A stretch of DNA of 64,000 bases from Candidatus Berkelbacteria bacterium. GTDB lineage: Bacteria > Patescibacteriota > UBA1384 > XYA2-FULL-43-10 > 1-14-0-10-43-13. The translations under genes were made by a program, and so were the position numbers. The first letter of the stretch is position 1; every line of letters begins with the position of its first letter. The notes under the pieces are model-generated. The model made no database searches. It saw nothing but the letters and a program-made list of their open reading frames with translations, and was not told where the DNA came from. Shown in pieces: positions 6,382 through 62,492 of this stretch. Location: assembly GCA_037140515.1 (NCBI GenBank), contig JBAXEI010000004.1, positions 8,453 to 72,452 of the forward strand. The letters run 5' to 3'.

Positions 6382-6864
6382 CTAACGTCTTCGCTTCTTT
6401 CCCTTACCTAATTTGATAAATTTTACATAGCCTAAAATCATAACAATTATGAGGCCAACCGTCACAAGTGCGAAGCGATACATACTATTATCACTCTCAA
6501 AACCACGAATTATAGCATAGAGCAAGGTTAGGAGCCCGCCAAGCAAGAAGCCATCGGTCACGATTGCTGTGTTCAGCAATAATGTCAGACTAAGTACGAG
6601 GAGCAGAACTGCAGCCACAACAGCGATCATTGAGACGTTTCTGCCATGAATTGCGGCTACTTTTTGATAATCAGCCATCTTTTTATCATAATCTTTTTGG
6701 ATTTGTTTATCTTCTGCAGACATTTGAACAGGTGTTTTCTCGCTATACTGGAGCTCAATAGGGTATTCCGGTGCCTTTGGGCTGTTGTAAAAAGCTTCGA
6801 TTCCGAGACCGACAAAAAAGGCAAGAATCACACCGAGAAAGAAAATGTACAGGAACTTTAACAT
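6382..6864 (-). CDS. Hypothetical membrane protein
   Basis: The ORF is 160 aa with 3-4 predicted TM helices and a central hydrophilic loop that carries a KQIQKDYDKKMADYQK motif. Confidence 0.4.
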   Translation of the reverse strand: MLKFLYIFFLGVILAFFVGLGIEAFYNSPKAPEYPIELQYSEKTPVQMSAEDKQIQKDYDKKMADYQKVAAIHGRNVSMIAVVAAVLLLVLSLTLLLNTAIVTDGFLLGGLLTLLYAIIRGFESDNSMYRFALVTVGLIIVMILGYVKFIKLGKGKKRRR

Positions 6865-8165: not shown

Positions 8166-9455
<1,290 letters not shown>

Positions 9456-9466
9456 TCTAAATCTAA

Positions 9467-10999
9467 TTGAAATACTCTATGGCAAGTAGAAACAAGGTTC
9501 TTTTGATCGTGCTCGATGGCTGGGGACATCGAGAAGAACGAGAGCACAACGCGATAGCAGAGGCTGAGACGCCCTATTTTGACCACTTGTGGACAACTTA
9601 TCCACATGCACTTCTGGAAGCCAGTGGCGAAGCGGTAGGTTTGCCTGAAGGCCAAATGGGTAACAGCGAAGTTGGCCACACCACAATTGGTGCTGGCAGA
9701 GTTATTTATACTGACTTTGTCAAAATCTCCAAATCGATCAGGGAGGGCACTTTTGGTCATAACGAGGCGATTATTACTCTTTTCGACCATATCAAGGAGC
9801 ACAATTCGACCTTACATCTGCAAAGTTTGATCGGTCCTGGCGGTGTCCATAGTCACATCGACCACCTCTACGCGGCCCTACGAGCCGCTAAGGCAGCAGG
9901 GATTACGAAGGTGGCGATTCATGCCTTCTCAGATGGCCGCGATACCCCACCACAGAGTGGAGCCGGCTACCTTTCTGATCTTGAGTCCATGATCGAAGAT
10001 CTTGGCATTGGCTTCATCGCTACGGTTACCGGCCGTTTCTATGCTATGGACCGCGACAACAACTGGGATCGCTTAAAGATCGCAGAAGACGCAATTTTTA
10101 AAGGAATTGGCGTTTCGAAAAAGATGAAGCCATCTGCAGCCTTGCATGAGCTTTATCGCGAAGATATTGTCGACGAGCACATCAAACCGATCATCTTTCT
10201 TGATCAAGACGATAAAAGTTGGCAAATAGAGCCAAATGATGGCATTTTTATGCTAAATTTCCGTTCAGATCGTGCTCGAATGCTTGCAAAAAATTTGATA
10301 GAGAAACAAGAAGAAATGAATCTAGCGATTGTAACCATGACAGAATATGACAAGAAATTTAATTCTCTGGTCGCTTTTATGCCTGAAGAAGCGGAAACAA
10401 CTCTTGCGCAAGAGATAGCTGAATCTGAGCTAACTCAAGAACATATCGCCGAAACGGAAAAGTTTGCACATGCAACATACTTTCTAAATGGTGGAGAAGA
10501 AACACCGCACCGACACGAGAAGCATACTCTCGTCAAAAGCCGAAAAGATGTGGACACTCACGACTTAGCGCCGGAAATGAAGGCTGCTGAAATCACTGAG
10601 AAAACGCTTGAGAGCATAAAGGATGGTACGGATTTAATTTTTGTTAACTACGCAAACCCAGATATGGTCGGCCACACCGCCAACAAAGATGCGTTACTTC
10701 AGGCAATCAGCTTCGTTGATCAGCAACTCAAACAGGTGACTGATGCTGCGCTAGAAAATAGCTATGCTGTACTCGTGACTGCAGACCACGGAAATGCTGA
10801 AATATATTTTGACAAAACAAATAATGAGAAGCATACCGCACACACGATAGATCCTGTGCCCCTCATTTTGGTTTCGAACAAAATCCAAGTCAAGAAGATC
10901 GACTCTGGCAGTCTACGCGATATTGCACCAACTATACTTAGTATCCTAGATCTAAAAGTTCCCGACACCATGACAGGACAAAACTTAATTAAAAAATAG
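9467..10999 (+). CDS. gpmI: 2,3-bisphosphoglycerate-independent phosphoglycerate mutase
   Basis: The N-terminus reads VLLIVLDGWGHREE. The protein is 510 aa with an iPGM domain layout, and the gene is adjacent to eno. Confidence 0.9.
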   Translation: MKYSMASRNKVLLIVLDGWGHREEREHNAIAEAETPYFDHLWTTYPHALLEASGEAVGLPEGQMGNSEVGHTTIGAGRVIYTDFVKISKSIREGTFGHNEAIITLFDHIKEHNSTLHLQSLIGPGGVHSHIDHLYAALRAAKAAGITKVAIHAFSDGRDTPPQSGAGYLSDLESMIEDLGIGFIATVTGRFYAMDRDNNWDRLKIAEDAIFKGIGVSKKMKPSAALHELYREDIVDEHIKPIIFLDQDDKSWQIEPNDGIFMLNFRSDRARMLAKNLIEKQEEMNLAIVTMTEYDKKFNSLVAFMPEEAETTLAQEIAESELTQEHIAETEKFAHATYFLNGGEETPHRHEKHTLVKSRKDVDTHDLAPEMKAAEITEKTLESIKDGTDLIFVNYANPDMVGHTANKDALLQAISFVDQQLKQVTDAALENSYAVLVTADHGNAEIYFDKTNNEKHTAHTIDPVPLILVSNKIQVKKIDSGSLRDIAPTILSILDLKVPDTMTGQNLIKK

Positions 11000-20538: not shown

Positions 20539-20634
20539 AGGGCAATTATATCAAAAAGAGTTCACAATACTAGCCTTGGGTACAAATACCAAAAAATCCC
20601 CTTGCGAGGATTGATTGGTCAAATGATTAATTGT

Positions 20635-21393
20635 TTACTGAACAAATGCAAAAGTTGATAATATTTTTCTGTCGACAGCCATATTTGCCTTCATCTCGTC
20701 TTCATGATCTTTTGCGCCAATGTATCTTAATTGCGCGCGATAGAGATTGGTGCCATTTACAAAGAAATAATCCTCGGTATATTCAACACCCTCCTTATTC
20801 TGCTCAACATAATATGATGCAAGCCTAGAGTAACCAAGTACATCTCCGACTGTTACAGACTTAAAAACTGTATTAGATATTTTTTGAAATTTCGAGGACG
20901 GAACTAAAGCACGAATCATTCCTAATGGATCAGTCTCACCCGCAGGAAGATTAAAATCAAAAATCATACCACCTAATTTTATCTCAATAGCGTTTGTTGT
21001 AGTTTTTTGATCGAGATACAAACTATTTAGATTCAACCCATCGTTGTCAGTCCTTGTAGCACAGAGCTGATCGTACTTGGTAGCGCCCACTCCACATTCA
21101 AACTCGACATTATATTCTGCGGGAGCGTCGACTGTATAGCCATATTTCTGATTAAAATAGTTTTTCCAACCAGCTATTGGATCAGCAGCCGTTGTTCCAC
21201 TCGTCACCGCTATTCCACTAGTCGCAGCTTCATCTGCAAGTCTCTGATTTAGAGTGTCGAGCTCTGTTTGTAACTTATCCTTGTCCTTCTTTGCATGGCT
21301 ATCGATCAGATACCAAGTTCCGCCGCCAACAATCGCTGCTGTCGCCACCGCAGTGATGACAATAATCCAGATTCTTTTCATTTTCCCTCGCAA
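20635..21393 (-). CDS. Hypothetical membrane-anchored exported protein (TM + coiled coil + globular domain)
   Basis: The ORF is 252 aa. Its N-terminus (IWIIVITAVATAAIVGGGTWYL followed by a coiled coil) is paralogous to the adjacent 61 aa ORF. Confidence 0.4.
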   Translation of the reverse strand: MRGKMKRIWIIVITAVATAAIVGGGTWYLIDSHAKKDKDKLQTELDTLNQRLADEAATSGIAVTSGTTAADPIAGWKNYFNQKYGYTVDAPAEYNVEFECGVGATKYDQLCATRTDNDGLNLNSLYLDQKTTTNAIEIKLGGMIFDFNLPAGETDPLGMIRALVPSSKFQKISNTVFKSVTVGDVLGYSRLASYYVEQNKEGVEYTEDYFFVNGTNLYRAQLRYIGAKDHEDEMKANMAVDRKILSTFAFVQ

Positions 21394-21413
21394 GTTATTA
21401 ATTTAAATTTCAT

Positions 21414-21599
21414 TTATTTTACGGTGCTTCCAGTAGTGACTTGATTCAGCTCATTTACCTGCTTGCCTAGATCATTTACCTGCTTTTCGAGATCCTTTGT
21501 GAGTCGGCCAGAATATTGGTTCATCAAATATTGAGTCCCAAAGCCAAAAACAGCCGCCGTGATAGCGATGGTAATCAAAATTATTACAGTAGATCTCAT
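21414..21599 (-). CDS. Small TM plus coiled-coil protein (61 aa), N-terminal paralogue of the neighbouring gene
   Basis: The sequence is MRSTVIILITIAITAAVFGFGTQYL followed by KDLEKQVNDLGKQVNELNQ. Confidence 0.3.
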   Translation of the reverse strand: MRSTVIILITIAITAAVFGFGTQYLMNQYSGRLTKDLEKQVNDLGKQVNELNQVTTGSTVK

Positions 21600-21668
21600 T
21601 TTCCCTCCTAGCTAATAACAGACAATATATTAATTATACACGAAAATAGATATGCGAAATATACAAAA

Positions 21669-22250
21669 TTATTTTGCCAAGTTTTTGAGGCAACACTTCA
21701 TCTTGTCTTCGAGAGTTTCGGCAGTAGACGGGATTTTGCCAATCACAGACATGATTTCTGCCTGTTTGTAGCCAAGAGATTGTAGCGCTTCAGTCAGGTC
21801 TTCGCTTGCCGAGTCGCCAGAAAGAATATTGACGCTTCTATCTCCAGAAAGCTTAGATTTGAGATCAAGAATTATCTTGGCAGCTGCTTTCTTGCCGATG
21901 CCAGAGATCGCGGTAAAGAAACCGAGATTGTCAGAGATGATCGCGCGCACGATCTCATCTGCCTTGCCTGAGCTCATGATCGCCATTCCCGCCTTCGGGC
22001 CGACACCATTTACCGAGATCAATCTTTCGAAAAGCTCCAGCTCTTCATAGGAAATAAAGCCATAAAGATCATCGGCATCTTCGCGGATATGTTCGTGAAC
22101 AAAAAGCTCGATCGGCTCCTGCAGATCGACAATGTTTGGCTTGATCTCAATCTGTGGGCTGACGATCACCTTGTGACCGACGCCGCCAGTCTCAACGATC
22201 AAGACGCCCCATCGAGCCAAAACAACTTTTCCTTTTAGATATGAAATCAT
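21669..22250 (-). CDS. ruvA: Holliday junction DNA helicase RuvA
   Basis: The N-terminus reads MISYLKGKV. The helix-hairpin-helix region reads LISVNGVGPKAGMAIMS. The protein is 193 aa. Confidence 0.85.
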   Translation of the reverse strand: MISYLKGKVVLARWGVLIVETGGVGHKVIVSPQIEIKPNIVDLQEPIELFVHEHIREDADDLYGFISYEELELFERLISVNGVGPKAGMAIMSSGKADEIVRAIISDNLGFFTAISGIGKKAAAKIILDLKSKLSGDRSVNILSGDSASEDLTEALQSLGYKQAEIMSVIGKIPSTAETLEDKMKCCLKNLAK

Positions 22251-22258
22251 TGAAATTA

Positions 22259-23194
22259 TTAAAGTTTAATTTTTTCTAGCTCAGCGAGACAGGCTTCTAG
22301 TAAGTGCGAAATTTCATCTTTTGTCATATGACCGCTACGATATATTTCTGATTTATCATTCTTGATCATGATATTTAGATTACAGATAGTGTCTGCCAAA
22401 TAGTAGAAGACGTAAAAATGGAAAAATGGCAATTCTTTAGCAGCTATATTAAGTTTTTCAACGAATCTCTTCTGCCATTCGGGATAAAGAATACTGCACA
22501 CATACACGTCTGCAAAGTCACGCCAACGGCTGTCGTAGCAAGAAAGTTCCCAATCAATGATGCCAGTGACTTTGTCATCCTGATAAATAATATTGCCCGG
22601 ATTCATATCAGCATGAGAAAGTCCGATATTTTCTTTCAAATAGCCTTCCAGATTGCTGTTCGCAAAGCTCTTCCATTTATCTAGTACAGTAAAATCATTG
22701 TTTGGCCACTCTGCTTTGAAATGATCATATCTTTTGTTATAAAAATCAAAGGCTTTGTAGGGGCGCTCTGTAAGGCTCGGCTTTGCCGCAAAGAATGCGT
22801 CAAAAATCGGAACTAACTTGGCAGGATCAATTTTGTCTATAAAATCCTGAGTGAACTTAAAGGAAGTACCTGCCTTATCGCCAGGGACAAGAGTTTGAAT
22901 AATCCAAAGTTTCTCTGCGCTACAGTCCAGCACTCGAGGCTGATGAGATGACCCAACGGACTCTAGAGCTCTCAGGATTGATATCTCGTTAGCAAAGTTT
23001 ATGTAGTCTCCTGGATTGACCTTCAGCACATATCGTACCGTAATGTCTTGTCCGCCTAGCTTACCTCGGATAACTGCCCGATGGTATTTTTGTTCGGCCT
23101 GTTTTCGAACGTCAAGAATATCGTATCCACTTAGATCTTTTCTTGATTTCAAAAAATTCTCTACTTCTGCTATCTTTTCAGACAACTCATCCAT
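22259..23194 (-). CDS. APH-fold (aminoglycoside/choline/sugar kinase-like) phosphotransferase
   Basis: The catalytic region reads HADMNPGNIIYQDDKVTGIIDWELSCYDSRWRDFADV, with the HxDxxxxN and DWE motifs. The substrate is unknown. Confidence 0.6.
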   Translation of the reverse strand: MDELSEKIAEVENFLKSRKDLSGYDILDVRKQAEQKYHRAVIRGKLGGQDITVRYVLKVNPGDYINFANEISILRALESVGSSHQPRVLDCSAEKLWIIQTLVPGDKAGTSFKFTQDFIDKIDPAKLVPIFDAFFAAKPSLTERPYKAFDFYNKRYDHFKAEWPNNDFTVLDKWKSFANSNLEGYLKENIGLSHADMNPGNIIYQDDKVTGIIDWELSCYDSRWRDFADVYVCSILYPEWQKRFVEKLNIAAKELPFFHFYVFYYLADTICNLNIMIKNDKSEIYRSGHMTKDEISHLLEACLAELEKIKL

Positions 23195-23220
23195 TGTAAC
23201 CCCAAGATTATATTTAATAA

Positions 23221-24144
23221 TTATCTACTAATTACCTTTGCTACTTCCGCAAAACCAGCTTGACCAACTTTTTCAATGTTACGAATATTTGAAGGCAATA
23301 CTTCGGGAACTTTTGTCGAGCCACTCAGCAGAAAACCCTTGTCACATACCTGCAAAAAACTGACATCGTTTGGAGCATCGCCGACACCGTATGTAATTAT
23401 TCCGGGTGCAATTTGCTTTACGATATTAATAAATAATTTTACTGCCGATCCCTTGTCCTGCTTGATTGAGATATGAGCGAAACGACCACCACGATGATAG
23501 TGAAGACCGTGATCAGTGATTATCTGCTTCGCAAAATCATAGTCTGCATCCAGACCGTTTTCGATATAAAATGGCTCGTCGCAATCTCGTTTTTTTGACA
23601 GCGCAGCCTGCTCAAGAGTCAGACCTGTCAGCTCGGATAGTGCTTGATCGGAAAAATCTCCAAAGCCATAAACTATCTTTCCTATCCTTGGTTCAACCTC
23701 TTTTTTTAAAACACTTCGGAGGCTAGAATAGTCAGCACGGCCAAAGCTCAGGATAATGTAGCCTAAATAGTCTTTTCTCGAGACCTCATCATATTTGTCT
23801 AGATCTACCTGATCAGCAACCTCCTCTGACAAATATATTGCAGCACCATTCTCAACAATAAATGATAATTTTCTTTTCAAACCCTTTTCTTTGAGAGCAG
23901 AAAAAAGGGCAAAAACCTCTGCTGCTGTCTTGCTTGTTACAAAAACCACTTCGTTGCCTTGCTCAAGAAAGGTGTTCAGAGCTTCATATGATCTCTCAAA
24001 CGAGTAATCATGATGGTCAAGAAAGGTCCCATCTAGGTCGCTAAAAAGTATTTTCGAAGTTAAATTATTCATGCAACTTCGCCTTATCAATCGGCCAGCG
24101 GGGCTTACGATCAGCAAATTTCTCCCGATATTCTGCAACTTCAT
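23221..24144 (-). CDS. HAD-IIB phosphatase, mannosyl/glucosyl-3-phosphoglycerate phosphatase-like
   Basis: The N-terminus reads ILFSDLDGTFLDHHDYSFE, as in MPGP-type HAD enzymes. A C-terminal GVGDAPNDVSFL motif is present. The gene overlaps the upstream GT gene by about 80 nt. Confidence 0.65.
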   Translation of the reverse strand: MKLQNIGRNLLIVSPAGRLIRRSCMNNLTSKILFSDLDGTFLDHHDYSFERSYEALNTFLEQGNEVVFVTSKTAAEVFALFSALKEKGLKRKLSFIVENGAAIYLSEEVADQVDLDKYDEVSRKDYLGYIILSFGRADYSSLRSVLKKEVEPRIGKIVYGFGDFSDQALSELTGLTLEQAALSKKRDCDEPFYIENGLDADYDFAKQIITDHGLHYHRGGRFAHISIKQDKGSAVKLFINIVKQIAPGIITYGVGDAPNDVSFLQVCDKGFLLSGSTKVPEVLPSNIRNIEKVGQAGFAEVAKVISR

Positions 24145-26254
24145 TGATCGCAGGTAGCTGAGATTCTAGGATTTTGATACTTTTGAAAGTATAGATATCA
24201 TCCTCAGACACAGGCTCATCAAGCAAACGCACCTTACCATGTATGTGAAGGCGATTGAAAACAGCTTGCATGATACCAAAGGATAGCTTACTCAAGCTCG
24301 CAAGCGACTGATTTCGATGAACACGAATCTTCAGATCAGACTGAGCAATGATGTCCAAACCATATTTTGTATAAATATCGATCATCATACATGTTTCAAG
24401 CGCATAATTGATACAAAAAGGAATAGACTCGAGAACTTCTCGTCGACCAGCGTACTCCCCTGAAAGCGGCTGAATAAGTTTGGATAGCTCAGGATAGAAA
24501 GTATTCAGAAGTGGTCTAACAGTAAGCTCAGTGACACGTCCCCCACCGCTGCTGTTCAGACTATCACCAAGTTGTAGAGGTCTTCGGTAGAAACCCTTCA
24601 CAAAGCCAATCTCATCGTTCGTGAGAAGCGGACCGAGCAAGCCATAGATAAATCTCGGATCGAAATTTCGAATGTCTGTATCAACCCAACAAATAATATC
24701 CGATTTGACGATAAAGAGACTTTTCCAAAGGTTATCGCCCTTACCCCAACCACCAGCGCTCCTATCTGTCGAGATAGGCACGTCCTTTGTTTGATATATT
24801 GGGACTCCAAGTTTTTCTACGATATCAATCGTACCATCAGTAGAACCGCTATCAATAACGATAAACTCGTCAATCAATTTATTTTTTGTAATAAAATTTT
24901 CCTTGATCATTTCGACAATGTAGCCGATGGTTTCAGCTTCATTTTTTGTTGGGAGAGCTACAGCAATCGTTAGCTTCTTCTGCTCTTTCAATTTAACAAG
25001 CTTGGCAATGTGCGAAAACGTACTGTAATGGAAAGTATTTCGCTTGAACCAGTCAAGATTAGATTCTTTGATACGAAGCCATCTCTTTAGCATATATGGC
25101 AGCTGAACTCGGAACTCTGCTGCGATTTTCTGCGTATGTTCCTCTGCTTGTGCGGAAGTCATATCTTTCACCTCCAGAGAATACCCGGCGACTCGACCAT
25201 AATAGAGAACAGTGAATACACTCATCAGCTCATCTTTGCTGATTGGACTTTGATTATATTTCACTGCGAAATCAAAAACCATTTTCACCCAAAATTTGAT
25301 CGGAAATGCAAACGTTGCAGGCTTCTGATTTGCGATTCGGTACAGCTCCTCAAAGTCCTCTTTCAACAACAAATCAAGATAAACCTTCCGATATCTTTTG
25401 ATACCCCGACGAAATTCATGAATAAGGTTGTTCGTATTTATTTTTATCGGAGGGACATCAAGTGTAATGGGCATATTGACGATTGGTACTGGATGGATTC
25501 TTTTTCCCTTTTTCCAGACATCCTGATATTGCCCAACAAGTTCAAAAACAACACTAGCAACCTGAGAAAGCATCGGCCCTAGGCCTCTAGGATCCTTCGG
25601 GTCATGAATTTTTGCTCCAAGATTTGCTTGGCCAATCTTGAACCCCTCACAAATCGCCGTTGTGGTTAAGAAAATATCGATTCCGTACTTCGCCACATTT
25701 GTTTCCCAAACATCTTTTGCCAAAATCGTTTCAGCGTATCGGAGAGAAAATGCAAAATCGCCACCAATTGGCTGGTGTATGTCCCCACCAAAAAGAGAAT
25801 TTGTCATTGGGTAAACTAAATTTCTGGTAATAGTACCATCGTATTTATCACGAAGATAGTTTGGGGAAATATAGTGATACTCCTCATGAACAACAGGGTC
25901 CAACAAGTATTTTGCCCATTCTGGCGTAACACTTCTGATATCGGCGTCAATGATCATGCCAGCGCCCGCTTGTTCAGCAACAATCTGCTTCAATATTTCT
26001 CTTATCGCATCCCCTTTGCCAGAAATGACAACATGCTCGATAGAGATTTTATCAACATTCGCTGGCGTTTCGACAGCGTTAAAGTTTTTGACAGTGTCGT
26101 CTATCGAACCTCCATCAGAATTCGCAATTGCACAATTCAGGTCGGGGAAATATTTCCCAAGCCCTTGTGCGATTTGGTCAACAACAAATCCGATAGTTTT
26201 AGCGTTATTATAGCTAGGAATTCCTATCAAGATGTCATATTTTTTGCTTTGCAT
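24065..26254 (-). CDS. Two-domain glycosyltransferase; C-terminal half GT81-like (glucosyl/mannosyl-3-phosphoglycerate synthase-like), N-terminal half a second GT-A domain
   Basis: Domain 1 reads ILIGIPSYNNAKTIGFVVDQ...IIDADIRS. Domain 2 reads IAVALPTKNEAETIGYIVE...IVIDSGSTDGT...CWVDTDIRNF...VKGFYRRPL...GGGRVTELTVRPLL...QPLSGEYAGRRE. This second domain is strongly reminiscent of GpgS/MpgS-type GT81 enzymes. Confidence 0.6.
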   Translation of the reverse strand: MQSKKYDILIGIPSYNNAKTIGFVVDQIAQGLGKYFPDLNCAIANSDGGSIDDTVKNFNAVETPANVDKISIEHVVISGKGDAIREILKQIVAEQAGAGMIIDADIRSVTPEWAKYLLDPVVHEEYHYISPNYLRDKYDGTITRNLVYPMTNSLFGGDIHQPIGGDFAFSLRYAETILAKDVWETNVAKYGIDIFLTTTAICEGFKIGQANLGAKIHDPKDPRGLGPMLSQVASVVFELVGQYQDVWKKGKRIHPVPIVNMPITLDVPPIKINTNNLIHEFRRGIKRYRKVYLDLLLKEDFEELYRIANQKPATFAFPIKFWVKMVFDFAVKYNQSPISKDELMSVFTVLYYGRVAGYSLEVKDMTSAQAEEHTQKIAAEFRVQLPYMLKRWLRIKESNLDWFKRNTFHYSTFSHIAKLVKLKEQKKLTIAVALPTKNEAETIGYIVEMIKENFITKNKLIDEFIVIDSGSTDGTIDIVEKLGVPIYQTKDVPISTDRSAGGWGKGDNLWKSLFIVKSDIICWVDTDIRNFDPRFIYGLLGPLLTNDEIGFVKGFYRRPLQLGDSLNSSGGGRVTELTVRPLLNTFYPELSKLIQPLSGEYAGRREVLESIPFCINYALETCMMIDIYTKYGLDIIAQSDLKIRVHRNQSLASLSKLSFGIMQAVFNRLHIHGKVRLLDEPVSEDDIYTFKSIKILESQLPAINEVAEYREKFADRKPRWPIDKAKLHE

Positions 26255-26274
26255 TTGTTGCCTTGTTTTCTATA

Positions 26275-27303
26275 TTAAACTATCATTTCATAATACAATT
26301 TTTCATAGCCGTCAATCATTTTGTCTAGGCTGAAATTATTATCCACCCAAACTCTGCACTCACGTCTAGAAATCTTATCGATATCCTTCAGGCGAAGTGC
26401 AGCTTCCTGCCAGTCTTTTACAACATAGCCGCTCACACCGTCGCTGACAACCTCCGGCATAGCACCTCGTCTTGTAGTGATAACTGGCGTGCCGCAGGCC
26501 ATGGCCTCAACAGGCACCAAGCCATATGGCTCATCCCAATTTATCAAATTGAGCAGAGCCTTTGCATCTCCTAGAAGCTTTGATTTTGCCTGATCATCAA
26601 CTTCACCAATAAACTTCACTTTTTCACCATCAATTAAAGGTTTGATTTGCTGCTGATAATACTCCTCGTCTTCCTTGTTTATTTTTCCAGCAAGGATTAT
26701 ATTTTCACCAGCTTCTTTCGCTGCAAGAATGGACTCTTTGGTGCCTTTGATATAAGAAATTCTGCCGAGCCAGACAACATAATCAGATTTTGGCTTCTCA
26801 TTGCAATAATACAATGAAGTATCTACGCCATTGTGTATTACCGTTGCATTTGCCATGTTTGAAACTTGCTTCTGATTTTCAGATATAGCAACGTATTCCA
26901 CGTTATTACACAGATCAAAAAGCTCCTTCATTTCTTTTGCAACCTCCAAATGGAGAGTATGAACCATCGGCGTTTTGATAACTTGACTCAGGATCAGAGG
27001 CTCATAAAAAGTATGATCATGTATTACGTCAAAATCTCCGTGCATGTCGAGAAGTTTTTTGAGCATCAGATAATTATATGCCTGCGGTCTCTTGACCGTA
27101 GTATCGCGGAATAGCGCAACTGGGCAAACCGAAACCAAAGGAAATTCCTTTGTGGAGTCGCCTGATGCGAATAAAGTAACTTCGTGACCACGCTTCGAAA
27201 GACCTTCGAGCAAATTATAAACAATTCTTTCAATTCCACCGTATAGTTTCGGTGGAACTGATTCCCAAAGTGGTGCGTATTGGGCTATCCTAAGCTTTTT
27301 CAT
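26275..27303 (-). CDS. GT4 family glycosyltransferase (GT-B, glycos_transf_1)
   Basis: The C-terminal motif reads EPYGLVPVEAMACGTPVITTRRGAMPEVVSDG. The gene is a paralogue of the adjacent gene. Confidence 0.8.
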   Translation of the reverse strand: MKKLRIAQYAPLWESVPPKLYGGIERIVYNLLEGLSKRGHEVTLFASGDSTKEFPLVSVCPVALFRDTTVKRPQAYNYLMLKKLLDMHGDFDVIHDHTFYEPLILSQVIKTPMVHTLHLEVAKEMKELFDLCNNVEYVAISENQKQVSNMANATVIHNGVDTSLYYCNEKPKSDYVVWLGRISYIKGTKESILAAKEAGENIILAGKINKEDEEYYQQQIKPLIDGEKVKFIGEVDDQAKSKLLGDAKALLNLINWDEPYGLVPVEAMACGTPVITTRRGAMPEVVSDGVSGYVVKDWQEAALRLKDIDKISRRECRVWVDNNFSLDKMIDGYEKLYYEMIV

Positions 27304-28327
27304 TTTTTATACCTGCCATTTTTTTATAAACTGCTTCATAATTATCCACCATTTTCTCAATGGAAAATTTCTCTTCAACAAATTTGCGACATTTGGCTCG
27401 ATCAATTTGGCTGATTTTTCCAACCGCTTCGATCGCACTTTCAGGCGAACCATCAGTAATGAAACCGTTTAAGCCATCCTCTACTAGCTCAGGGAAGGCG
27501 CCACGTGGATTTACGATCACAGGTGTACCACAAGCATTTGCCTCTGGTACCACTAAGCCAAAAGGCTCATCCCAATTAATCAAAGAGACGAGAGCTTTTG
27601 CATTTTTCAATAGCTCAACCTTCTGTTTGAAATCTACCTCGCCAATATAAACTATTTTCTCATTATCGATTTTTGGCTCAACGTATTTTTTGAAATATTC
27701 TTCGTCCTCGATTTTCGCGGCCATGACCAACTTTTCGCCAGTCGCAAGAGCAAGGTCAATCGCCTCTCTCGCACCTTTGATATTATCAAAACGGCCGAGA
27801 AAGCAAAGATATTCCCCAGACTCGCTCGAGAATTCATAATCATTTACTGGAACACCGTTGTAAACGGTATCTATATAGTTGAGATCAGGATAATCTTTAC
27901 GTTGATTGTCAGAAATCGATGCAAGATAAAAATTATCTTTTACCTGCTCATAAAGCTTAGCACGACACCTTGTAACTGGCGTGTGTAAAGTGGTCAAAAC
28001 TGGAGTCGAAGTCAATCGCGAGAGGACAGTCCCATAGGGCCCCAAGTGTTCATGGATGACGTCATACTTCTTCCCACTATCGACTAGCTGATAGAGCATC
28101 GAGAGACAACACGAAGGTATATCTTTAAAATCCTGCGTATTCCACAGACCGGTAGGAACAACTCCGACTAAATTCGCTGATGTTTTGGAGTCACCAGTCG
28201 CATACAAATCGACTTCGTGCCCACGCTTCACCAGCTCTTCTGTCAAGTAGTACACAACGAATTCGCTTCCACCATATTTATCCGGCGGAATTTTGATTGC
28301 GATTGGAGCAACTATAGCAATTTTCAT
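27290..28327 (-). CDS. GT4 family glycosyltransferase (second paralogue)
   Basis: The C-terminal motif reads EPFGLVVPEANACGTPVIVNPRGAFPELVEDG. The N-terminus is similar to that of the previous gene. Confidence 0.8.
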   Translation of the reverse strand: MKIAIVAPIAIKIPPDKYGGSEFVVYYLTEELVKRGHEVDLYATGDSKTSANLVGVVPTGLWNTQDFKDIPSCCLSMLYQLVDSGKKYDVIHEHLGPYGTVLSRLTSTPVLTTLHTPVTRCRAKLYEQVKDNFYLASISDNQRKDYPDLNYIDTVYNGVPVNDYEFSSESGEYLCFLGRFDNIKGAREAIDLALATGEKLVMAAKIEDEEYFKKYVEPKIDNEKIVYIGEVDFKQKVELLKNAKALVSLINWDEPFGLVVPEANACGTPVIVNPRGAFPELVEDGLNGFITDGSPESAIEAVGKISQIDRAKCRKFVEEKFSIEKMVDNYEAVYKKMAGIKNEKA

Positions 28328-28355
28328 TTTTTGTTCTCCTATTAGGAATCATCTA

Positions 28356-29423
28356 CTACTCTTTGTTCAACTTTTTTAAATCTTGGTATATAGCCTCTTC
28401 ACCACAGCTATAGTGTTCTTTCTGACTTTTGATCATTTCTGCTCTTTTCTCTTCATCGTAGAGCAAGGACTCGATAGTCTTATACATCAGATTCACGTCA
28501 TCATCATAGAAATGCATCTTGCAAAGGCCAGCCTTCACAAAAGGCTGAATCTCCCACGAATGTGCATGAATTTTCTCTTCTGGAGCAGGTGTAGCTACGT
28601 TTGCTACAACAGGAATTCCAGCAGAGATACATTGTTCAAGCGTTCCTAATCCTTGATGCTGAAAAACCATATCAGAAGCAGCCAATAATTGATAGAACAC
28701 ATCACTATTTGTTTTGATTTTTAGATGCTGAATCCAAGGTTTCTCTGGCTCCTCGCCGCTCAGGAATAAAACTTTTACCTTATCGCCATGTCGCAGATAA
28801 ACTTCATCCATAACCGCGATATACTTATCATAGAAATCTTTGCGCAGAGTAACCCCACTACCAATATATGAAAAAATGAGCTTTTGATCTTCAGTAAGGC
28901 CAATTTCTTTACGAAGATTTAAGAGCACGGCTTCTTCTGGCTTCTTGTATGAAGGAACCAGGCCAATCGGCAAAATCTTTTTTGAAACCTCTTCAGGAAT
29001 GGTATAGTTCCCGCCATTTTCAACAAGACCATTTTTGTATACATCAAGCGGAAAATTCAAATATATCTTGTCTATCCACTGTATATATGGAAACCTATCC
29101 GGCTGATTGAACAACCAATTAGAGTCAAGAGAAACGACATAAGGCTTGTTTTGAGGGGCTTCGGTGCGAAATTTCTCATCTTTAAACATCGCCTTGGAAT
29201 TACACAAAATCACTACGTCAAAACCTCCCTCTGAAATAATTGATTTCACCTCATCGCCATTGTTTGTCACCCAAAACGGGCAAGAAAGATTATTGATGAA
29301 ATGTCGATTCTCTTCTAGCAGAAGAATGAAGGAAACATCTTCTTTCTTTTCCAATAAATGTTTTCCTATTGCGGCGCCTTGAGATGTCTCGCCAGGGCCC
29401 ATAGTGATGATCAAAAATTTCAT
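28356..29423 (-). CDS. GT-B fold glycosyltransferase (GT1/GT28-like)
   Basis: The ORF is 355 aa with an N-terminal Gly-rich loop (IITMGPGETSQGAAIG) and a C-terminal nucleotide-sugar binding-like region (HQGLGTLEQCISAGIPVV). The family assignment is uncertain. Confidence 0.45.
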   Translation of the reverse strand: MKFLIITMGPGETSQGAAIGKHLLEKKEDVSFILLLEENRHFINNLSCPFWVTNNGDEVKSIISEGGFDVVILCNSKAMFKDEKFRTEAPQNKPYVVSLDSNWLFNQPDRFPYIQWIDKIYLNFPLDVYKNGLVENGGNYTIPEEVSKKILPIGLVPSYKKPEEAVLLNLRKEIGLTEDQKLIFSYIGSGVTLRKDFYDKYIAVMDEVYLRHGDKVKVLFLSGEEPEKPWIQHLKIKTNSDVFYQLLAASDMVFQHQGLGTLEQCISAGIPVVANVATPAPEEKIHAHSWEIQPFVKAGLCKMHFYDDDVNLMYKTIESLLYDEEKRAEMIKSQKEHYSCGEEAIYQDLKKLNKE

Positions 29424-29425
29424 AT

Positions 29426-30424
29426 TTAACCTTTCAAGTAATGAGTAGCCTCTTCTGGTGGCATAGTATTAATAATAACTTCGCTTCCAAGTTCAAATCC
29501 ACCATAGCGAGAAACTCGCGGAACAATTTCAAGGTGCCAGTGAAAAGAAGCCGAGGCTTCGATAATCGTTGGTAACGTATGAACAAAAAAGTTTAATGGT
29601 GGATTCTCAAGTGTCTTATCGATCATGCGCAGGACTTCCCAAAGCGCGTCCGAAAATTCCGTCATACTTTCTCTGGTTGTCAACTCAAACTGGCTCTCAT
29701 GTTTTTTCGGCAGAATCCACGTTTCGAAGGGGAATCTAGATGCATAAAAATTTATAGCAATAAATTTGTCATTTTCAAATACTATTCTAACCTTTTCCAT
29801 CTGTTCGTGCGCAATCATATCGCAATACACACAGTTACCCGCGACGCCGTAGTAAGTATCCGCGCCCTCAATCTCGCGTCCGACAGTATTAGAAACAATA
29901 CCAGAGGCAAAAATCTGAGCATGAGGGTGGTCGATAGAAGCACCCGCCTCAGCACCGTGATTGTATATTGGCATGATTGAAACTACCTTTTCGTGCTCTT
30001 TCATCCAGATATAGCGGCTGCGAATCACTTCCATCATTTCGTTCAAAATAAGTTTTGGGATCTTGAATAATGGCGTGTCGTGATCTTCCACAACAATAAC
30101 TTCATGGTCTCCGACAGAGGCTCTGGCACGATAAAAGCCACTCTCAGGATAAAAACTTCTGACGCTCTTCTCTGTGTCATCCATGACAAAAGCTGGATAT
30201 CTGTTTTCGATCACATAGACATGAGGCGCCGTATGCATACGAATTTTCTCGTTTGCTTTGTAGCCATCTGTCCCAACACAGAATGGACATTTGGATTTAT
30301 CCGCAATCTTAACACTTTTTGGAATTACGAAATCGCGAGGACGCTTTGCACGCTCAGGCGCAACGACGACCCAGTCGCCAGTGATAATATTTTGTCTTAA
30401 CTCAGGCATAACCCCTCCGTTCAA
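29426..30424 (-). CDS. galT: Galactose-1-phosphate uridylyltransferase-like HIT-family nucleotidyltransferase
   Basis: A zinc motif reads CPFCVG and the active-site HPH motif reads DHPHAQIF. The protein is 332 aa, a typical GalT length. Confidence 0.7.
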   Translation of the reverse strand: MNGGVMPELRQNIITGDWVVVAPERAKRPRDFVIPKSVKIADKSKCPFCVGTDGYKANEKIRMHTAPHVYVIENRYPAFVMDDTEKSVRSFYPESGFYRARASVGDHEVIVVEDHDTPLFKIPKLILNEMMEVIRSRYIWMKEHEKVVSIMPIYNHGAEAGASIDHPHAQIFASGIVSNTVGREIEGADTYYGVAGNCVYCDMIAHEQMEKVRIVFENDKFIAINFYASRFPFETWILPKKHESQFELTTRESMTEFSDALWEVLRMIDKTLENPPLNFFVHTLPTIIEASASFHWHLEIVPRVSRYGGFELGSEVIINTMPPEEATHYLKG

Positions 30425-30538
30425 ATTTTGTAATTTAGTAATTGCGAAATTTATTCATTTATTGATAAATTTTATAATTGCTAAATTAATTAAATAAATA
30501 TTAAAATTTCAAATTGTAAAAATAATTAAATTTCAAAA
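30425..30538. promoter_or_regulatory. Extremely AT-rich intergenic region with direct AAATTTCAAA repeats upstream of the glycosyltransferase operon
   Basis: The region is 114 bp and almost all A/T. It reads aaatttcaaattgtaaaaataattaaatttcaaaatt, and a TATAAT is present. Confidence 0.35.
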
Positions 30539-37617: not shown

Positions 37618-38274
37618 ATGAATTTTTTTAAACAACCGATTTTTTTGGGCATCTTAGCTGTCGCTCTGGTAATCACGATAATATGGAGCTTCATTGCAAA
37701 CAAAAACTCCGCCTCAAGCACTACTACTCAACAAACAACAACGGGTAGCACGGTCCAAGCAACAACTTCAGACCTAACAAATGCAACACCAAGTGATTTC
37801 GACAATACGGTCAAAGATGAGGTGACTGCTGCGACAAAGTTTGCTCTAGAGTTTAATCCTGAATTCAAGCTTTCGGTAATAGAAGTGGTAATCGGCAGTA
37901 ATTTACAACAAAGCTCTATCGTCACCCGATATGCCTTCTCGACAACAAAGGATGTGAGAAACAACTGGGTGTATACGACCAACCAAAGCGATGGCTCATT
38001 TATCCGAGCACTAATCCCAAAAGCTGATTATCTCGGCGATATCGTCCCTATCAACGCTAGCCTCTGGAAGTACAATTACATTTCAGCGCTACAACAAGCC
38101 GAAAAAAGCGGCGGCTCAGATTGGAGAAGTAAGAATACCCTGCTAGACGTAACCCTTACGCTAAAAGAATCAGCTGATTTGAAAAAGCTTTATTGGACAA
38201 TTTCATACAGAAGTGCTGACAGCACGGATACTATAGTGATAGACGCAACAACGCTAGAGGTCTCTCAGCAATAA
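37618..38274 (+). CDS. Hypothetical exported protein with Ser/Thr-rich linker
   Basis: An N-terminal TM or signal sequence (IFLGILAVALVITIIWSF) is followed by a low-complexity stretch (SSTTTQQTTTGSTVQATTS). Confidence 0.4.
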   Translation: MNFFKQPIFLGILAVALVITIIWSFIANKNSASSTTTQQTTTGSTVQATTSDLTNATPSDFDNTVKDEVTAATKFALEFNPEFKLSVIEVVIGSNLQQSSIVTRYAFSTTKDVRNNWVYTTNQSDGSFIRALIPKADYLGDIVPINASLWKYNYISALQQAEKSGGSDWRSKNTLLDVTLTLKESADLKKLYWTISYRSADSTDTIVIDATTLEVSQQ

Positions 38275-39136: not shown

Positions 39137-39664
39137 ATGCAATTGACACAACTTCCAAGCGTGGATGTCTTCATCGGGCTCTTTTTTCTACTAGGCACTG
39201 CCTACGCTTTTATTCTCCAGCGAGAGAAAACGATCACGACACTTTGCTCGGTATATATCGGGCTTGTCGTTGCAACTCAATTTTCTGAATCTTTATTCAA
39301 ATTTTTCAACGGCAACGCTTTTCTCATGAATCAGATTTGGGTAAAGAGTAACATCTCTAGCTCCACGATTGCGATCGGTCTTTTCTTCCTAACCATTATT
39401 ATGGTCTCCGCCTCGATAAATTCTAAATCGAAAAGATCAGATGAAATCTCGATCATTGAAGTCTTGGTCTATAGCGGCCTCATGGTTGCCTTGATCTTAT
39501 CTTCAGTGCTTGATTTTTTGCCAGAGGCACTCAGAAATCACTATATCGAGGTCTCAGTCGCCGCAAAATATTTGAATAATTTTGGGACTTTCTTTGTCGT
39601 CTTGCCACCAGTCATGTTTGTGCTCCTTGGTCGCAAGAAAAAAGAACGTTCATATAGCAGATAA
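39137..39664 (+). CDS. Hypothetical polytopic membrane protein
   Basis: The ORF is 175 aa with 4-5 TM helices and a basic C-terminus. Confidence 0.4.
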   Translation: MQLTQLPSVDVFIGLFFLLGTAYAFILQREKTITTLCSVYIGLVVATQFSESLFKFFNGNAFLMNQIWVKSNISSSTIAIGLFFLTIIMVSASINSKSKRSDEISIIEVLVYSGLMVALILSSVLDFLPEALRNHYIEVSVAAKYLNNFGTFFVVLPPVMFVLLGRKKKERSYSR

Positions 39665-42558: not shown

Positions 42559-43428
42559 CTACTTCCTTCCAAAAAGTGCAGAGAGAAAACCATTTTCCTT
42601 ATGATGACGCTTCAGAGCTTTCAAAAATTCTGCGGCGTGAGCCTCGGCATAGTCTTCACCAATCGCTCGTATCTCTACCATTTTTGTAAAATGAAACCAG
42701 CTAAATGTTTCGACAGGTGGTGTGAAAACGTAATCACATTTCTTCATCTCATAACGCGCAAGTTCTTTTTGCATTATATCGATCGAGCGAAGCGTTGAGA
42801 GCAGTCGTCCTGGCTCTTTACCCTCCACATCAAATTTATCCATCACTTCAATGTTATAGAGAGACGAACCGATAATGAAATCCATGCCCTTTTTGCGCAG
42901 TATTCCCGCAGGAAGATTACGACTAATACCCCCGTCAATCAAGCTTTTACCGTCAATATCTTGAGCAGGAAATGCACCAGGAAAAGCAGAGGAAGCCATA
43001 AGAGCGCTGACAAGGTCACCACTTTCTAGGTAAACAGGATTGCCTTCAGCAAAGTGCGTTGCTACACAAACAAAATTGATATTTAGATCATAAAATTTTT
43101 CAGGCAAATGTTTTTGTAGTGTTGTGCGAATAGTTTCAAAAGTTTTATCAGGAAGACCGCCGAAGATCAGATTGGCACGAGAAAACACGCCTTGTTTCTC
43201 AAGATCGGCAAGAAATGCTTCAATTCGGGCGACGCCGCCAGCCGCAAAAAGTGCACCGATGATCGCCCCAGCAGAAGTCCCTGAGATATATTTGATCGGA
43301 ATTTTCTCTTTCTCGATCATCTTTAGTACACCAATATGAGCTACACCGAGTACTCCACCACCAGAGAGGGCTAGACCGATTTTCATTTTACCTCCATACT
43401 TTTCAAAAGCTTGATCTCCTCTGCCCAA
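42559..43428 (-). CDS. Patatin-like phospholipase
   Basis: The N-terminus reads KIGLALSGGGVLGVAHIGVLK with the GTSAG nucleophile elbow. A catalytic Asp in a DGG motif is present. Confidence 0.8.
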   Translation of the reverse strand: MGRGDQAFEKYGGKMKIGLALSGGGVLGVAHIGVLKMIEKEKIPIKYISGTSAGAIIGALFAAGGVARIEAFLADLEKQGVFSRANLIFGGLPDKTFETIRTTLQKHLPEKFYDLNINFVCVATHFAEGNPVYLESGDLVSALMASSAFPGAFPAQDIDGKSLIDGGISRNLPAGILRKKGMDFIIGSSLYNIEVMDKFDVEGKEPGRLLSTLRSIDIMQKELARYEMKKCDYVFTPPVETFSWFHFTKMVEIRAIGEDYAEAHAAEFLKALKRHHKENGFLSALFGRK

Positions 43429-44240
43429 GTCGATGATTCCTGTGGAGTTTCGAGAATGCCAAAGCAGTGTTGCAGTTTTGGATGATTGATTATGAAGCGA
43501 AATGTTTCAAGGCCAATCTCCCCTTTGCCCAGATCTGCATGCCGATCACGCTTCGAGTCTAGGACTGTTTTCGAATCATTTAGATGGAAGCCAACAAGCT
43601 TATCGATCCCAATCAGTTGATCAAATTTCTCCACAAATTCATCTACCTGTTTCTCTGTGCGAAGATCGTAGCCGGATTCAAAGGCATGAGCTGTATCGAT
43701 GAGAACTCGAACTCGAGGTGAATCAACCGCTTTCATAACTAATAAAATTTCTTCGAGTGTATCTCCTATAATATTGCCAGCGCCTGCGGAGTTTTCGATG
43801 ATAAATAGTGTTTTCTCGTCTGTAGCGGCAAGCACTTGCTTCACTGCTTCAGCAACTTTCACGAGAACCTCGCTCATCTCCTTGCCCTTTGTCGAGCCAA
43901 GATGCATATTGGCACCAAGCGCGCCGAGCTTTGTGGCTTTGTTCATATCGTCGATCAGAGATTTGATTGACTGTTCATAGAAAAACGGGTTTTCGCTCGC
44001 AAGATTAACCAAATAAATACTATGAATAATCACCGGCGAGATTTTCGCTTTTTCATTTAGCTCCAAATATCTCTTGATCTCACTTTCTGGGATTTCGGTC
44101 GGATTCCAACGTTGCGGAGCATTTGCAAAAATCTGCATACACTCACAGCCAATACTCTCTGCACGCGTGATCGCGTCAGAAAATGGTTTTGCAGTCGAAA
44201 TATGTGCGCCAATTTTCATTAGTTTCCCTTCTTCATCCAC
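43383..44240 (-). CDS. nfo: Endonuclease IV (AP endonuclease family 2)
   Basis: The N-terminus reads MKIGAHIS. Metal-binding His and Glu/Asp residues are in conserved positions (HLND and IENSAGAGN). Confidence 0.85.
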   Translation of the reverse strand: MDEEGKLMKIGAHISTAKPFSDAITRAESIGCECMQIFANAPQRWNPTEIPESEIKRYLELNEKAKISPVIIHSIYLVNLASENPFFYEQSIKSLIDDMNKATKLGALGANMHLGSTKGKEMSEVLVKVAEAVKQVLAATDEKTLFIIENSAGAGNIIGDTLEEILLVMKAVDSPRVRVLIDTAHAFESGYDLRTEKQVDEFVEKFDQLIGIDKLVGFHLNDSKTVLDSKRDRHADLGKGEIGLETFRFIINHPKLQHCFGILETPQESSTWAEEIKLLKSMEVK

Positions 44241-44731
44241 GCCGCGACATTACCCACTCGATTGTCTTGCGGTTGAATAATATTCATTGGACTTGCTGTC
44301 AGTTTTTTATCGAAATATTCACCAAACAGCTGGGGATAATAATACTCAGCAAAGTCATCTACAGTCAAAGATTCCGCTTCCTCAGCACCCATCCAATGAA
44401 ATTCTGAGGCTTCGGTTTCTTCATCAATTTTTCCATCACCGCTATGCTCTGCCAAGAATACTAGATGAAAAACATTCTTCTCTGGCATCAAGATATCAAG
44501 AACTTTTACCAATCCCTTCAGCTCTACTTCTAGCCCGATTTCGGTCTGAATTTTTCTTTTCAACCCTTCTTCGATTGTCTCGTTAAGAAACAATTTTCCG
44601 CCTGGCAGGCTCAATCTATTGGGCATCCACTCGTTTGTAGCCGGCTCTCTGAGAAGCAAGAGCTTGTCATTTTTATAAACTAAAATTTTTACAGCAACAA
44701 TAGTTTGATAATCATAACGCTCGTTTTTCAT
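44219..44731 (-). CDS. NUDIX hydrolase
   Basis: The Nudix box reads GGKLFLNETIEEGLKRKIQTEIGLEV. The substrate is not assignable. Confidence 0.75.
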   Translation of the reverse strand: MKNERYDYQTIVAVKILVYKNDKLLLLREPATNEWMPNRLSLPGGKLFLNETIEEGLKRKIQTEIGLEVELKGLVKVLDILMPEKNVFHLVFLAEHSGDGKIDEETEASEFHWMGAEEAESLTVDDFAEYYYPQLFGEYFDKKLTASPMNIIQPQDNRVGNVAAWMKKGN

Positions 44732-62451: not shown

Positions 62452-62492
62452 GCATAAAAAAAGGAAGCCGACTGTCACTGTCAAGCTTCCTT
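62452..62492 (-). terminator. Rho-independent terminator overlapping the 3' end of the 62481-63059 gene
   Basis: A perfect 8 bp stem (AAGGAAGC...GCTTCCTT) is followed by a T-run on the minus strand. Confidence 0.55.

Follow-up and report, generated by a model that had tools for sequence, protein, structure and literature searches.

A rare GgS::GpgS fusion and a putative glucosylglycerate-based glycoside pathway in a strain-variable slot of Candidatus Berkelbacteria

We analysed a stretch of 64,000 nucleotides from Candidatus Berkelbacteria bacterium, which belongs to the candidate phyla radiation (CPR) (assembly GCA_037140515.1, contig JBAXEI010000004.1, positions 8,453 to 72,452; the whole stretch is called the window below), in which a contiguous block of seven sugar genes lies on the minus strand at 22259-30424. 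Judged from sequence, the enzymes of this block probably build a glycoside based on glucosylglycerate (GG) in the cytoplasm. Its central protein, of 729 aa, joins an N-terminal domain resembling glucosylglycerate synthase (GgS) to a C-terminal glucosyl-3-phosphoglycerate synthase (GpgS) domain of family GT81, and the other genes encode a HAD-IIB phosphatase, three further glycosyltransferases (GTs; two GT4 enzymes, here GT4a and GT4b, and an orphan GT-B enzyme), a galT-like HIT nucleotidyltransferase and an APH/choline-kinase-fold kinase. The core chemistry of GpgS and phosphatase is already known, and NCBI annotates the 729-aa protein as 'glucosyl-3-phosphoglycerate synthase'. New are the rare fusion, its setting in CPR beside a GT1-like/GT4 pair, a galT-like gene and an orphan kinase, and the block-wise exchange of its priming module. 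CPR bacteria (Patescibacteria) are usually described as lacking most biosynthesis, and full-text searches of the literature gave no link between glucosylglycerate and CPR save one incidental co-mention. A complete and self-contained glycosyl-glycerate pathway would give CPR a concrete, testable physiological trait.

In the proposed route, the GT81 domain would transfer glucose from an NDP-glucose to 3-phosphoglycerate to form glucosyl-3-phosphoglycerate (GPG), from which the phosphatase, of the MPGP family, would release GG; both steps are strongly supported by homology. The 3-phosphoglycerate would come from glycolytic enzymes encoded nearby: enolase and cofactor-independent phosphoglycerate mutase (iPGM) lie side by side at 8175-10999 on the plus strand of the window, which shows local production of phosphoglycerates, the acceptor of GpgS. 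The GgS-like domain may provide a one-step route from glycerate or act on the same glyceryl scaffold, since the Thr that binds the glycerate carboxylate is kept. GT4b would probably attach another hexose to GPG or GG, much as MggA is used in making mannosylglucosylglycerate. Further sugars may then come from GT4a, a retaining enzyme, and from the GT1-like GT-B, which is probably inverting, giving a di- to tetra-glycosyl glycerate. The galT-like enzyme would interconvert hexose-1-phosphate and NDP-hexose (ADP- or UDP-hexose) and so feed the transferases, and the cassette-specific kinase may phosphorylate either a scavenged sugar that feeds the galT-like enzyme or the glycoside itself. In sister strains, a priming module with an MshA-like GT4, with or without an S6PP-like phosphatase, takes the place of the GG-priming module between a fixed galT-like gene and a fixed ruvA.

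The fusion protein and its phosphatase

The assignment of the C-terminal half as a GT81 glucosyl-3-phosphoglycerate synthase is well supported. The GpgS equivalog model NF010496 matches residues 398-707 with 393.9 bits (cut-off 262), while the competing models reach only 55 bits (AglJ) and 17 bits (PpgS), and no dolichyl- or polyprenyl-phosphate transferase model exceeds 55 bits; the earlier sequence-only reading, which placed this domain with the GpgS/MpgS synthases, is therefore upheld against a dolichyl-phosphate sugar transferase. The best solved relative is the Rubrobacter MpgS (PDB 3f1y, E 8.5e-68), and mycobacterial GpgS structures match at about 1e-58 to 1e-51 (7pdo/7p5l, 7e-58). Peptide blocks which that reading had picked out (IVIDSGSTDG, VKGFYRRPL, GGGRVTEL and QPLSGEYA in this domain, and DLDGTFLDHHDYS in the phosphatase) were all found in the translations, and the segments VDTDIR, GKGD, QPLSGEYAG, GGGRVTEL and RVHRNQ line up with GpgS and MpgS sequences of solved structure. 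In M. tuberculosis GpgS, functional roles have been assigned to the Asp-X-Asp motif, a Lys114/Glu232 network, the PLSGE(-Tyr) donor loop and the His258-Arg loop, and Val186/Thr187 bind the acceptor carboxylate (PMC2581804). All the metal-, donor- and acceptor-binding residues assigned in that study are kept in the window domain. Because the PLSGE network is tied to discrimination against mannose (PMC2581804), glucose is the likelier donor.

Over 97-100% of its length, the N-terminal half (residues 1-397) is 41-48% identical to a family of stand-alone proteins about 410 aa long, which number more than 6,600. One of them, P0098 (43% identical), is named glucosylglycerate synthase by JGI, and the homologues give weak matches to PF21969 (MGS_GT, the GT domain of mannosylglycerate synthase). 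In naming the family GgS-like we also lean in part on the Persephonella enzyme, which we take to make GG directly from ADP-glucose and D-glycerate. All 29 invariant columns of the family are retained in the window domain, including D103-A-D105, K80, T143 and H217. Compared with the GT81 half, the family profile aligns with a probability of 98.6% (hhalign, E 7e-16), and each motif has its counterpart, down to the Thr for the glycerate carboxylate. However, the domain itself matches a solved GpgS (7pdo) only at E 3e-4 and gives no match to NF010496. The two halves are thus homologous GT-A domains of different families and not the outcome of a recent tandem duplication of GT81; the sequence-only reading had seen a tandem GT81 duplication here.

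Stand-alone relatives of the N-terminal domain are widespread, in at least 598 GTDB species, and they often lie beside gpgS. In 42 of 80 sampled GTDB ggs loci a gpgS gene lies no more than 8 kb away, in most cases as the direct neighbour on the same strand (e.g. L016 and L018), and an MPGP-type phosphatase is present in 36 of the 80. The gpgS genes near ggs in these loci are of the Methanococcoides/Persephonella type (GpgS_Meth), while the GpgS half of the window protein is of the actinobacterial/PRK13915 GT81 type. The operon of Persephonella marina is reportedly arranged ggs-gpgS-gpgP (Fernandes et al. 2007), and ggs-gpgS-gpgP operons with the same three activities on one strand are found in many Nitrospirota, Acidobacteriota, Chloroflexota and Desulfobacterota. 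The 729-aa protein can be read as a fused version of this widespread ggs-gpgS pair, followed by gpgP. What the window adds to the ggs loci are three GTs, a galT-like gene and a kinase; among the 80 sampled loci the GTs and the kinase occur in none and a galT-like gene in one.

Fusion of the two synthases is rare: among 1.84 billion representative proteins we found five 50%-identity clusters of GgS/GpgS fusions, with the domains in either order. An identical 729-aa protein with unchanged neighbours is present on nine independent contigs (NCBI, ENA, JGI and Logan assemblies), and so it is not an assembly artefact. In contig profile scans, the single 729-aa protein as query gave no relative, and the family alignment gave only distant stand-alone homologues (at most 43% identity), none of them from CPR. 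GpgS is also joined to other partners in nature, as Usp-Usp-GpgS (common), GgS-like::Usp::GpgS, GT4::GpgS::GH13 with an alpha-amylase-family domain (P0197) and GT-B::GpgS (P0183). P0155, along with many more proteins some 600-650 aa long, and P0149 also bear one or another of these architectures. A role as stress protectant would fit the many Usp-Usp-GpgS fusions and the MscS channels that flank the stand-alone ggs locus L016. Together, the rare GgS::GpgS fusion and the widespread ggs-gpgS adjacency argue that both enzymes work on one scaffold, and the in vivo function of GgS-like enzymes becomes an open issue again.

The HAD protein likewise groups with the mannosyl/glucosyl-3-phosphoglycerate phosphatases. 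Its ten best NCBIfam matches are all MPGP or MPGP-related, TIGR01486 (MPGP) scoring 159.3 bits, somewhat below its cut-off of 164.75, and the Cof model 45 bits, which supports the earlier assignment as an MPGP-type and not a Cof-type phosphatase. HAD motif I (DLDGT) is present. Its gene shares 8 nt with that of the synthase, and a phosphatase 37% identical to it again stands beside the synthase in the closest fusion-bearing cluster, on contig L014.

Extension glycosyltransferases, galT-like enzyme and kinase

GT4a and GT4b are paralogues (42% identical) that both carry PF13439 and PF00534 above the cut-offs, and neither matched a characterised equivalog in Pfam or NCBIfam. A GlgM/maltose-1-phosphate reading of the two was rejected, TIGR02149 giving only 55-59 bits against a cut-off of 302. 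GT4a is 86% identical in the sister strain L020, and 40% identical to a short GT4 that is paired with a GT-B relative in a Rhodothermales metagenome-assembled genome (MAG; L027). GT4b belongs to the block 23234-27273, which is exchanged as a unit relative to L020 (see below). MggA, which mannosylates glucosyl-3-phosphoglycerate, is itself a GT4 enzyme (PMC3736172), and GT4b is our candidate for an MggA-like enzyme acting on GPG or GG.

The 355-aa GT-B protein matches no Pfam or NCBIfam family above the cut-off and falls in a small family of 69 hypothetical proteins. Its AlphaFold2 (AF2) model, with a pLDDT of 95.4, has a predicted GT1/GT28-like fold: Foldseek ranks UGT51 (a sterol glucosyltransferase), YjiC, GTs for macrolides and vancomycin, and MurG as its best PDB matches (E 1e-12 to 1e-9; TM about 0.6-0.66), and the top 30 consist of GT1 UGTs, antibiotic GTs and MurG. 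This protein is 84% identical in L020, and GT-B plus GT4a form a conserved pair. A homologue of the window GT-B also occurs in a Patescibacteria MAG (L029, 7020-10068), where it and a His_Phos_1 phosphatase come after a 441-aa GpgS-like GT2 fused to a SerB-like HAD-IB phosphatase; here a pathway of the same type seems to have been put together in another way.

It is plausible that the extra GTs extend the product of the core pair, as the sequence-only reading proposed, and two known systems come close to such a route. In the mannosylglucosylglycerate pathway of Petrotoga mobilis and Rhodopirellula baltica (GpgS, MggA, MggB), GpgS forms GPG, the retaining GT4 enzyme MggA places another hexose on this phosphorylated intermediate and a HAD phosphatase ends the route (PMC3736172). 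The window likewise has a GpgS, a co-travelling GT4 and a HAD phosphatase, the likeness of GT4b to MggA being at the level of the GT4 family only; it has two further GTs, and its product may be longer. Moreover, the window phosphatase is MPGP-type, whereas MggB of R. baltica was described as unrelated to known phosphatases. The second system is the start of methylglucose lipopolysaccharide (MGLP) synthesis in mycobacteria (GpgS Rv1208, GpgP Rv2419c, GT4 Rv3032), where the GG primer is elongated by GT-B enzymes in the cytoplasm and the GT81 GpgS shows the same active-site motifs. In contrast to MGLP synthesis, the window block has no methyltransferase, acyltransferase or branching enzyme, and its phosphatase is of the HAD type while the mycobacterial one is of the histidine-phosphatase type (Patescibacteria L029 does have a His_Phos_1 protein). 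The GT4::GpgS::GH13 and GT-B::GpgS proteins are natural fusions of GpgS with GTs of these same two kinds.

The galT-like protein matches both HIT-like half-domains (PF01087 and PF02744), contains the HPHAQIF (HXHXQ) motif and has a CPFC zinc site visible in the sequence. It resembles the Arabidopsis ADP-glucose phosphorylase At5g18200 (PDB 1z84; residues 6-328, E 1e-52, 182 bits) more than the Leloir GalT of E. coli (E 6e-22, 81 bits). It shares HXHXQ with At5g18200, yet it just passes the bacterial model TIGR00209 (104.2 bits, cut-off 102.1), while it fails the enterobacterial equivalog PRK11720, with 123 bits against 448. Among the checked window open reading frames (ORFs) of at least 150 aa, a set without the 626-aa ORF at 4260-6140, none is galK or galE, and the protein is not a canonical Leloir GalT. 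The GpgS of R. baltica prefers ADP-glucose as its donor (PMC3736172). In sister strains with other cassettes the galT-like protein is 93-95% identical, so that it belongs to the backbone and lies outside the variable cassette, and in the distant L014 cluster the first gene encodes a homologue with 49% identity.

As for the kinase, PF01636 (56.9 bits, cut-off 23.2) and PF01633 (29.9 bits, cut-off 29) point to a near-orphan small-molecule kinase of the APH/choline-kinase fold. A word-indexed search of 5.8 billion proteins returned only three proteins, the kinase having just two relatives there. In a profile search of the PDB, APH(3') is best at E 3e-5 and amicoumacin, macrolide and choline kinases are weaker; searching the PDB by sequence and by profile, with E values as high as 1 allowed, brought up neither NahK nor maltokinase. 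The AF2 model (pLDDT 49) recovers the general APH/choline-kinase fold only, at a Foldseek TM of about 0.3, and was not used; NahK turned up only among the meaningless low-TM matches of this model. The idea that the protein is an anomeric sugar kinase is not borne out, for it has no specific similarity to one and its best solved relatives, at E >=3e-5, are antibiotic and choline kinases.

A private activation route, in which this kinase and the galT-like enzyme turn a sugar into an NDP-sugar, had also been proposed. It has a real precedent in the bifidobacterial galacto-N-biose/lacto-N-biose (GNB/LNB) operon, in which an APH-fold kinase and a HIT nucleotidyltransferase, NahK and GalT2 (LnpB/LnpC), form such a route from sugar through sugar-1-phosphate to NDP-sugar, though nothing specific supports it here. 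LnpC is a class II GalT and the window protein is class I-like, the window kinase has no specific similarity to NahK, and no GalE was found among the ORFs checked.

Module exchange in sister strains and alternative readings

In sister strains, RuvA, RuvB, RuvC and YebC are 94-99% identical to those of the window, and other genes lie between the galT-like gene and ruvA. The window (variant A) has GT-B, GT4a, GT4b, GgS::GpgS, the HAD phosphatase and the 311-aa kinase. Variant D (L020 and L023) has GT-B (84%), GT4a (86%), an MshA-like GT4 of 428 aa, a GT4 of 347 aa and a 312-aa kinase (74%). Variant C (L006 and L007) consists of the MshA-like GT4, the 347-aa GT4 and a 319-aa kinase, which is 22% identical to the window kinase and alignable end to end, and variant B (L004) has the genes of variant C plus an S6PP-like HAD protein of 388 aa. 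The MshA-like GT4 (418-428 aa) scores 307 bits with TIGR03449 (cut-off 462). The catalytic motifs HADMNPGN and IIDWE are kept in both kinase types, that of the window and the 319-aa one.

The breakpoints of DNA synteny are sharp. Compared with variants B and C, synteny ends exactly at the stop codon of the galT-like gene (29430) and resumes at the start of ruvA (22250). Compared with variant D, it ends at 27274 and resumes at 23233 (blastn), which defines GT4b, GgS::GpgS and the phosphatase as one exchangeable block. Rather than one fixed unit, the operon is a mosaic of exchangeable modules. The closest relative of the fusion (51% identity) lies on the unrelated contig L014, where a galT-like gene, a GT2, a GT4 and a GT-B (best model MggS) precede it and the phosphatase comes after it.

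We tentatively suggest, as a possibility we would not press, a broader view of the slot between the galT-like gene and ruvA as a modular island, in which the priming chemistry is block-exchanged between co-occurring strains while the extension pair, the galT-like gene and a fast-evolving orphan kinase are retained. Priming would then use either 3-phosphoglycerate, through the rare GgS::GpgS fusion, or a phosphorylated alcohol, through the MshA-like GT4. An episymbiotic bacterium with a reduced genome would in this way diversify a small glycoside, cytoplasmic or cell-associated, much as serotypes diversify, and the kinase and galT-like enzyme might make up a scavenging route by which the glycoside produced depends on sugars taken from the host. 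With block exchange at a fixed locus and housekeeping genes that are nearly identical, nature offers a clean experiment on modular glycoside pathways, and the slot could mark strains for typing in these populations.

Several findings weigh against the GG-based glycoside pathway as proposed above. The same type of kinase and the GT-B/GT4a pair also occur with the MshA-like module (L020), so they are not specific to glycerate; since one kinase type serves both priming chemistries (variants A and D), the kinase in particular is not tied to glycerate, and its role is unexplained by the glycerate model. Strain-level cassette swapping is commoner in surface glycans than in compatible solutes. GT4a, GT4b and GT-B match no specific characterised family, the phosphatase is 5 bits under the TIGR01486 cut-off, and the link from the GgS-like domain to the characterised Persephonella GgS is a single name, the one JGI gave to P0098. 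Finally, the choice of glucose over mannose comes from the PLSGEY motif only, and the best solved match is an MpgS.

The variation itself could be taken to mean that the locus is a strain-variable, serotype-like glycoconjugate locus, in which a glycosyl-glycerate or an MshA-type glycoside primes a larger polymer, glycolipid or protein glycan or serves as its head group, such as a polysaccharide resembling MGLP or a structure on the cell surface that takes part in interactions with a host or with phages. Differing cassettes in the same slot of strains with RuvABC 94-99% identical are typical of surface-glycan loci, and a second variable slot, between ruvA and ruvB just downstream, encodes anchored or secreted proteins. 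GG primes MGLP in mycobacteria, and the closest solved fold of the GT-B is a sterol glucosyltransferase, with MurG among the matches. However, no flippase, polymerase, lipid-carrier transferase, acyltransferase or methyltransferase was found within the block, and both primers, GpgS and MshA-like, come from clades whose products are soluble glycosides of small molecules. Hydrophobic segments are absent from all seven proteins (maximum KD19 1.56); all look soluble, and a membrane or export function was rejected on this ground. We consider a glycoconjugate locus unlikely.

It is also rather improbable, in our estimate, that only the fusion and the phosphatase cooperate, making a plain glucosylglycerate or mannosylglycerate solute, and that the GT4s, the GT-B, the kinase and the galT-like enzyme belong to an unrelated glycosylation that shares the operon. 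In many bacteria the ggs-gpgS-gpgP trio suffices by itself, none of the 80 ggs loci has a homologue of the window GT-B, GT4a/b or kinase, and in L020 the GT-B/GT4a pair and the kinase occur with the MshA-like module and without any GpgS. Against a division of this kind, GT4b moves in a single block with the fusion and the phosphatase, and the independent L014 cluster again unites the fusion with three other GTs and a galT-like gene. Moreover, GT4::GpgS and GT-B::GpgS fusion proteins are known, and the overlaps of 14 nt (GT4a/GT4b) and 8 nt (fusion/phosphatase) favour one pathway.

A very improbable reading is that two of the enzymes, the GT1-like GT-B and the kinase of the APH fold, modify xenobiotics or antibiotics and are in the operon by chance. 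Macrolide and glycopeptide GTs are among the Foldseek matches of the GT-B, the kinase has APH(3'), amicoumacin kinase and Mph as its best solved relatives, and the window encodes an ANT(2'')-like protein at another place, but the likeness is only at the level of fold and catalytic core (E >=3e-5; 8-15% identity), the GT-B family repeatedly adjoins GpgS-like and GT4 genes, and both genes are packed tightly with the sugar genes.

Gene layout, transcription and surroundings

Coordinates of the genes, domains, modules and sister-strain counterparts are collected in Table 1. Seven genes were counted at this place, and gene calls made independently on identical contigs match the seven-ORF layout; eight had been claimed in the sequence-only reading, although its own list also holds seven. 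Gaps and overlaps between successive genes are small (+2, +28, -14, +20, -8 and +26 nt in gene order), as was stated there. The start of the HAD gene is an internal ATG (MNNLTSK) according to the gene callers, and that of the galT-like gene is the ATG at 30409, preceded by a conserved GGAGG. On the whole, that reading was largely right in what it observed, the gene block and the peptide blocks being confirmed and the gene count, the AT-rich promoter and the tandem GT81 not; in its interpretation, the GpgS/phosphatase pair stood, and the tandem GT81 and the anomeric kinase fell.

Table 1. Positions of the genes, domains, exchangeable segments and sister-strain counterparts described in the text
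Feature	Sequence	Position	Strand	Length or remark
galT-like HIT nucleotidyltransferase	window	29426-30409	-	327 aa
Orphan GT-B glycosyltransferase	window	28356-29423	-	355 aa
GT4a, retaining GT4 glycosyltransferase	window	27290-28327	-	345 aa
GT4b, retaining GT4 glycosyltransferase	window	26275-27303	-	342 aa
Two-domain GT (GgS::GpgS fusion)	window	24065-26254	-	729 aa
N-terminal GgS-like GT-A domain of the fusion	window	25064-26254	-	residues 1-397
C-terminal GT81 glucosyl-3-phosphoglycerate synthase domain of the fusion	window	24065-25063	-	residues 398-729
HAD-IIB phosphatase, MPGP family	window	23221-24072	-	283 aa
APH/choline-kinase-fold kinase	window	22259-23194	-	311 aa
ruvA	window	21669-22250	-	downstream anchor of the variable slot
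Swappable module GT4b + GgS::GpgS + phosphatase	window	23234-27273		blastn breakpoints vs L020
Whole variable cassette, six genes	window	22251-29429		blastn breakpoints vs L004, L006, L007
AT-rich ruvC-galT spacer	window	30410-30538	-	indel
MshA-like GT4	L004	5799-7085
MshA-like GT4	L006	3006-4262
MshA-like GT4	L020	5384-6670

Upstream of the block are yebC and ruvC, and downstream of it ruvA and ruvB, so the sugar genes sit within the usual yebC-ruvCAB neighbourhood. The sequence-only reading had the operon driven from the AT-rich region at 30425-30538. The spacer between ruvC and the galT-like gene, roughly 100 nt long and extremely AT-rich, is itself an indel: its counterpart is conserved in L004 (3246-3375), of unrelated sequence in L020 (1859-1996) and reduced to a 25-nt gap in L006 (1733-1757). 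Because it is missing in L006, it cannot be an obligatory promoter. A promoter scan gave 41 sites where 31 are expected by chance, which is near chance and has no evidence value, and the sole promoter-like match near the proposed region (30566-30538) overlaps the 3' end of ruvC. At the other end, ruvA begins 8 nt past the kinase stop codon and no terminator-like site was found between the two, and on these grounds the transcription unit very probably includes ruvA. A unit that runs from the galT-like gene (or from yebC/ruvC) through ruvA seems the most economical reading.

Two further ideas about the cassette were tried and rejected. Weak Pfam hints (GT4-conflict and TCAD9) prompted a look at anti-phage defence, and 0 of 10 proteins match PADLOC. 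A base-composition sign of horizontal transfer was also sought; the GC content of the cassette is 0.405-0.414, the same as the window average.

The second strain-variable slot, between ruvA and ruvB, is at 20539-21668 in the window and holds one N-terminally anchored ORF of 252 aa (20635-21393) with no Pfam matches. In sisters (L006 7043-9906; L020 9601-12799), the slot contains a 425-aa Tricorn/PD40-like protein and a 431-aa protein, or a PaaX_M-like, a 299-aa and a 442-aa protein.

Elsewhere in the window, a 1018-aa ORF at 1202-4258 on the plus strand has no Pfam match at E <=1e-5, and the same holds for the ORFs at 38-706, 6382-6864, 37618-38274, 39137-39664, 45830-46465 and 62481-63059. 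A 166-aa protein at 51355-51855 on the minus strand matches PF10706 (aminoglycoside-2''-adenylyltransferase-like, E 6e-12). Finally, a patatin-like phospholipase, a xylose-isomerase-like TIM-barrel protein (AP_endonuc_2) and a NUDIX hydrolase are encoded in a row at 42559-44731 on the minus strand, the latter two of which could bear on sugar-nucleotide metabolism.

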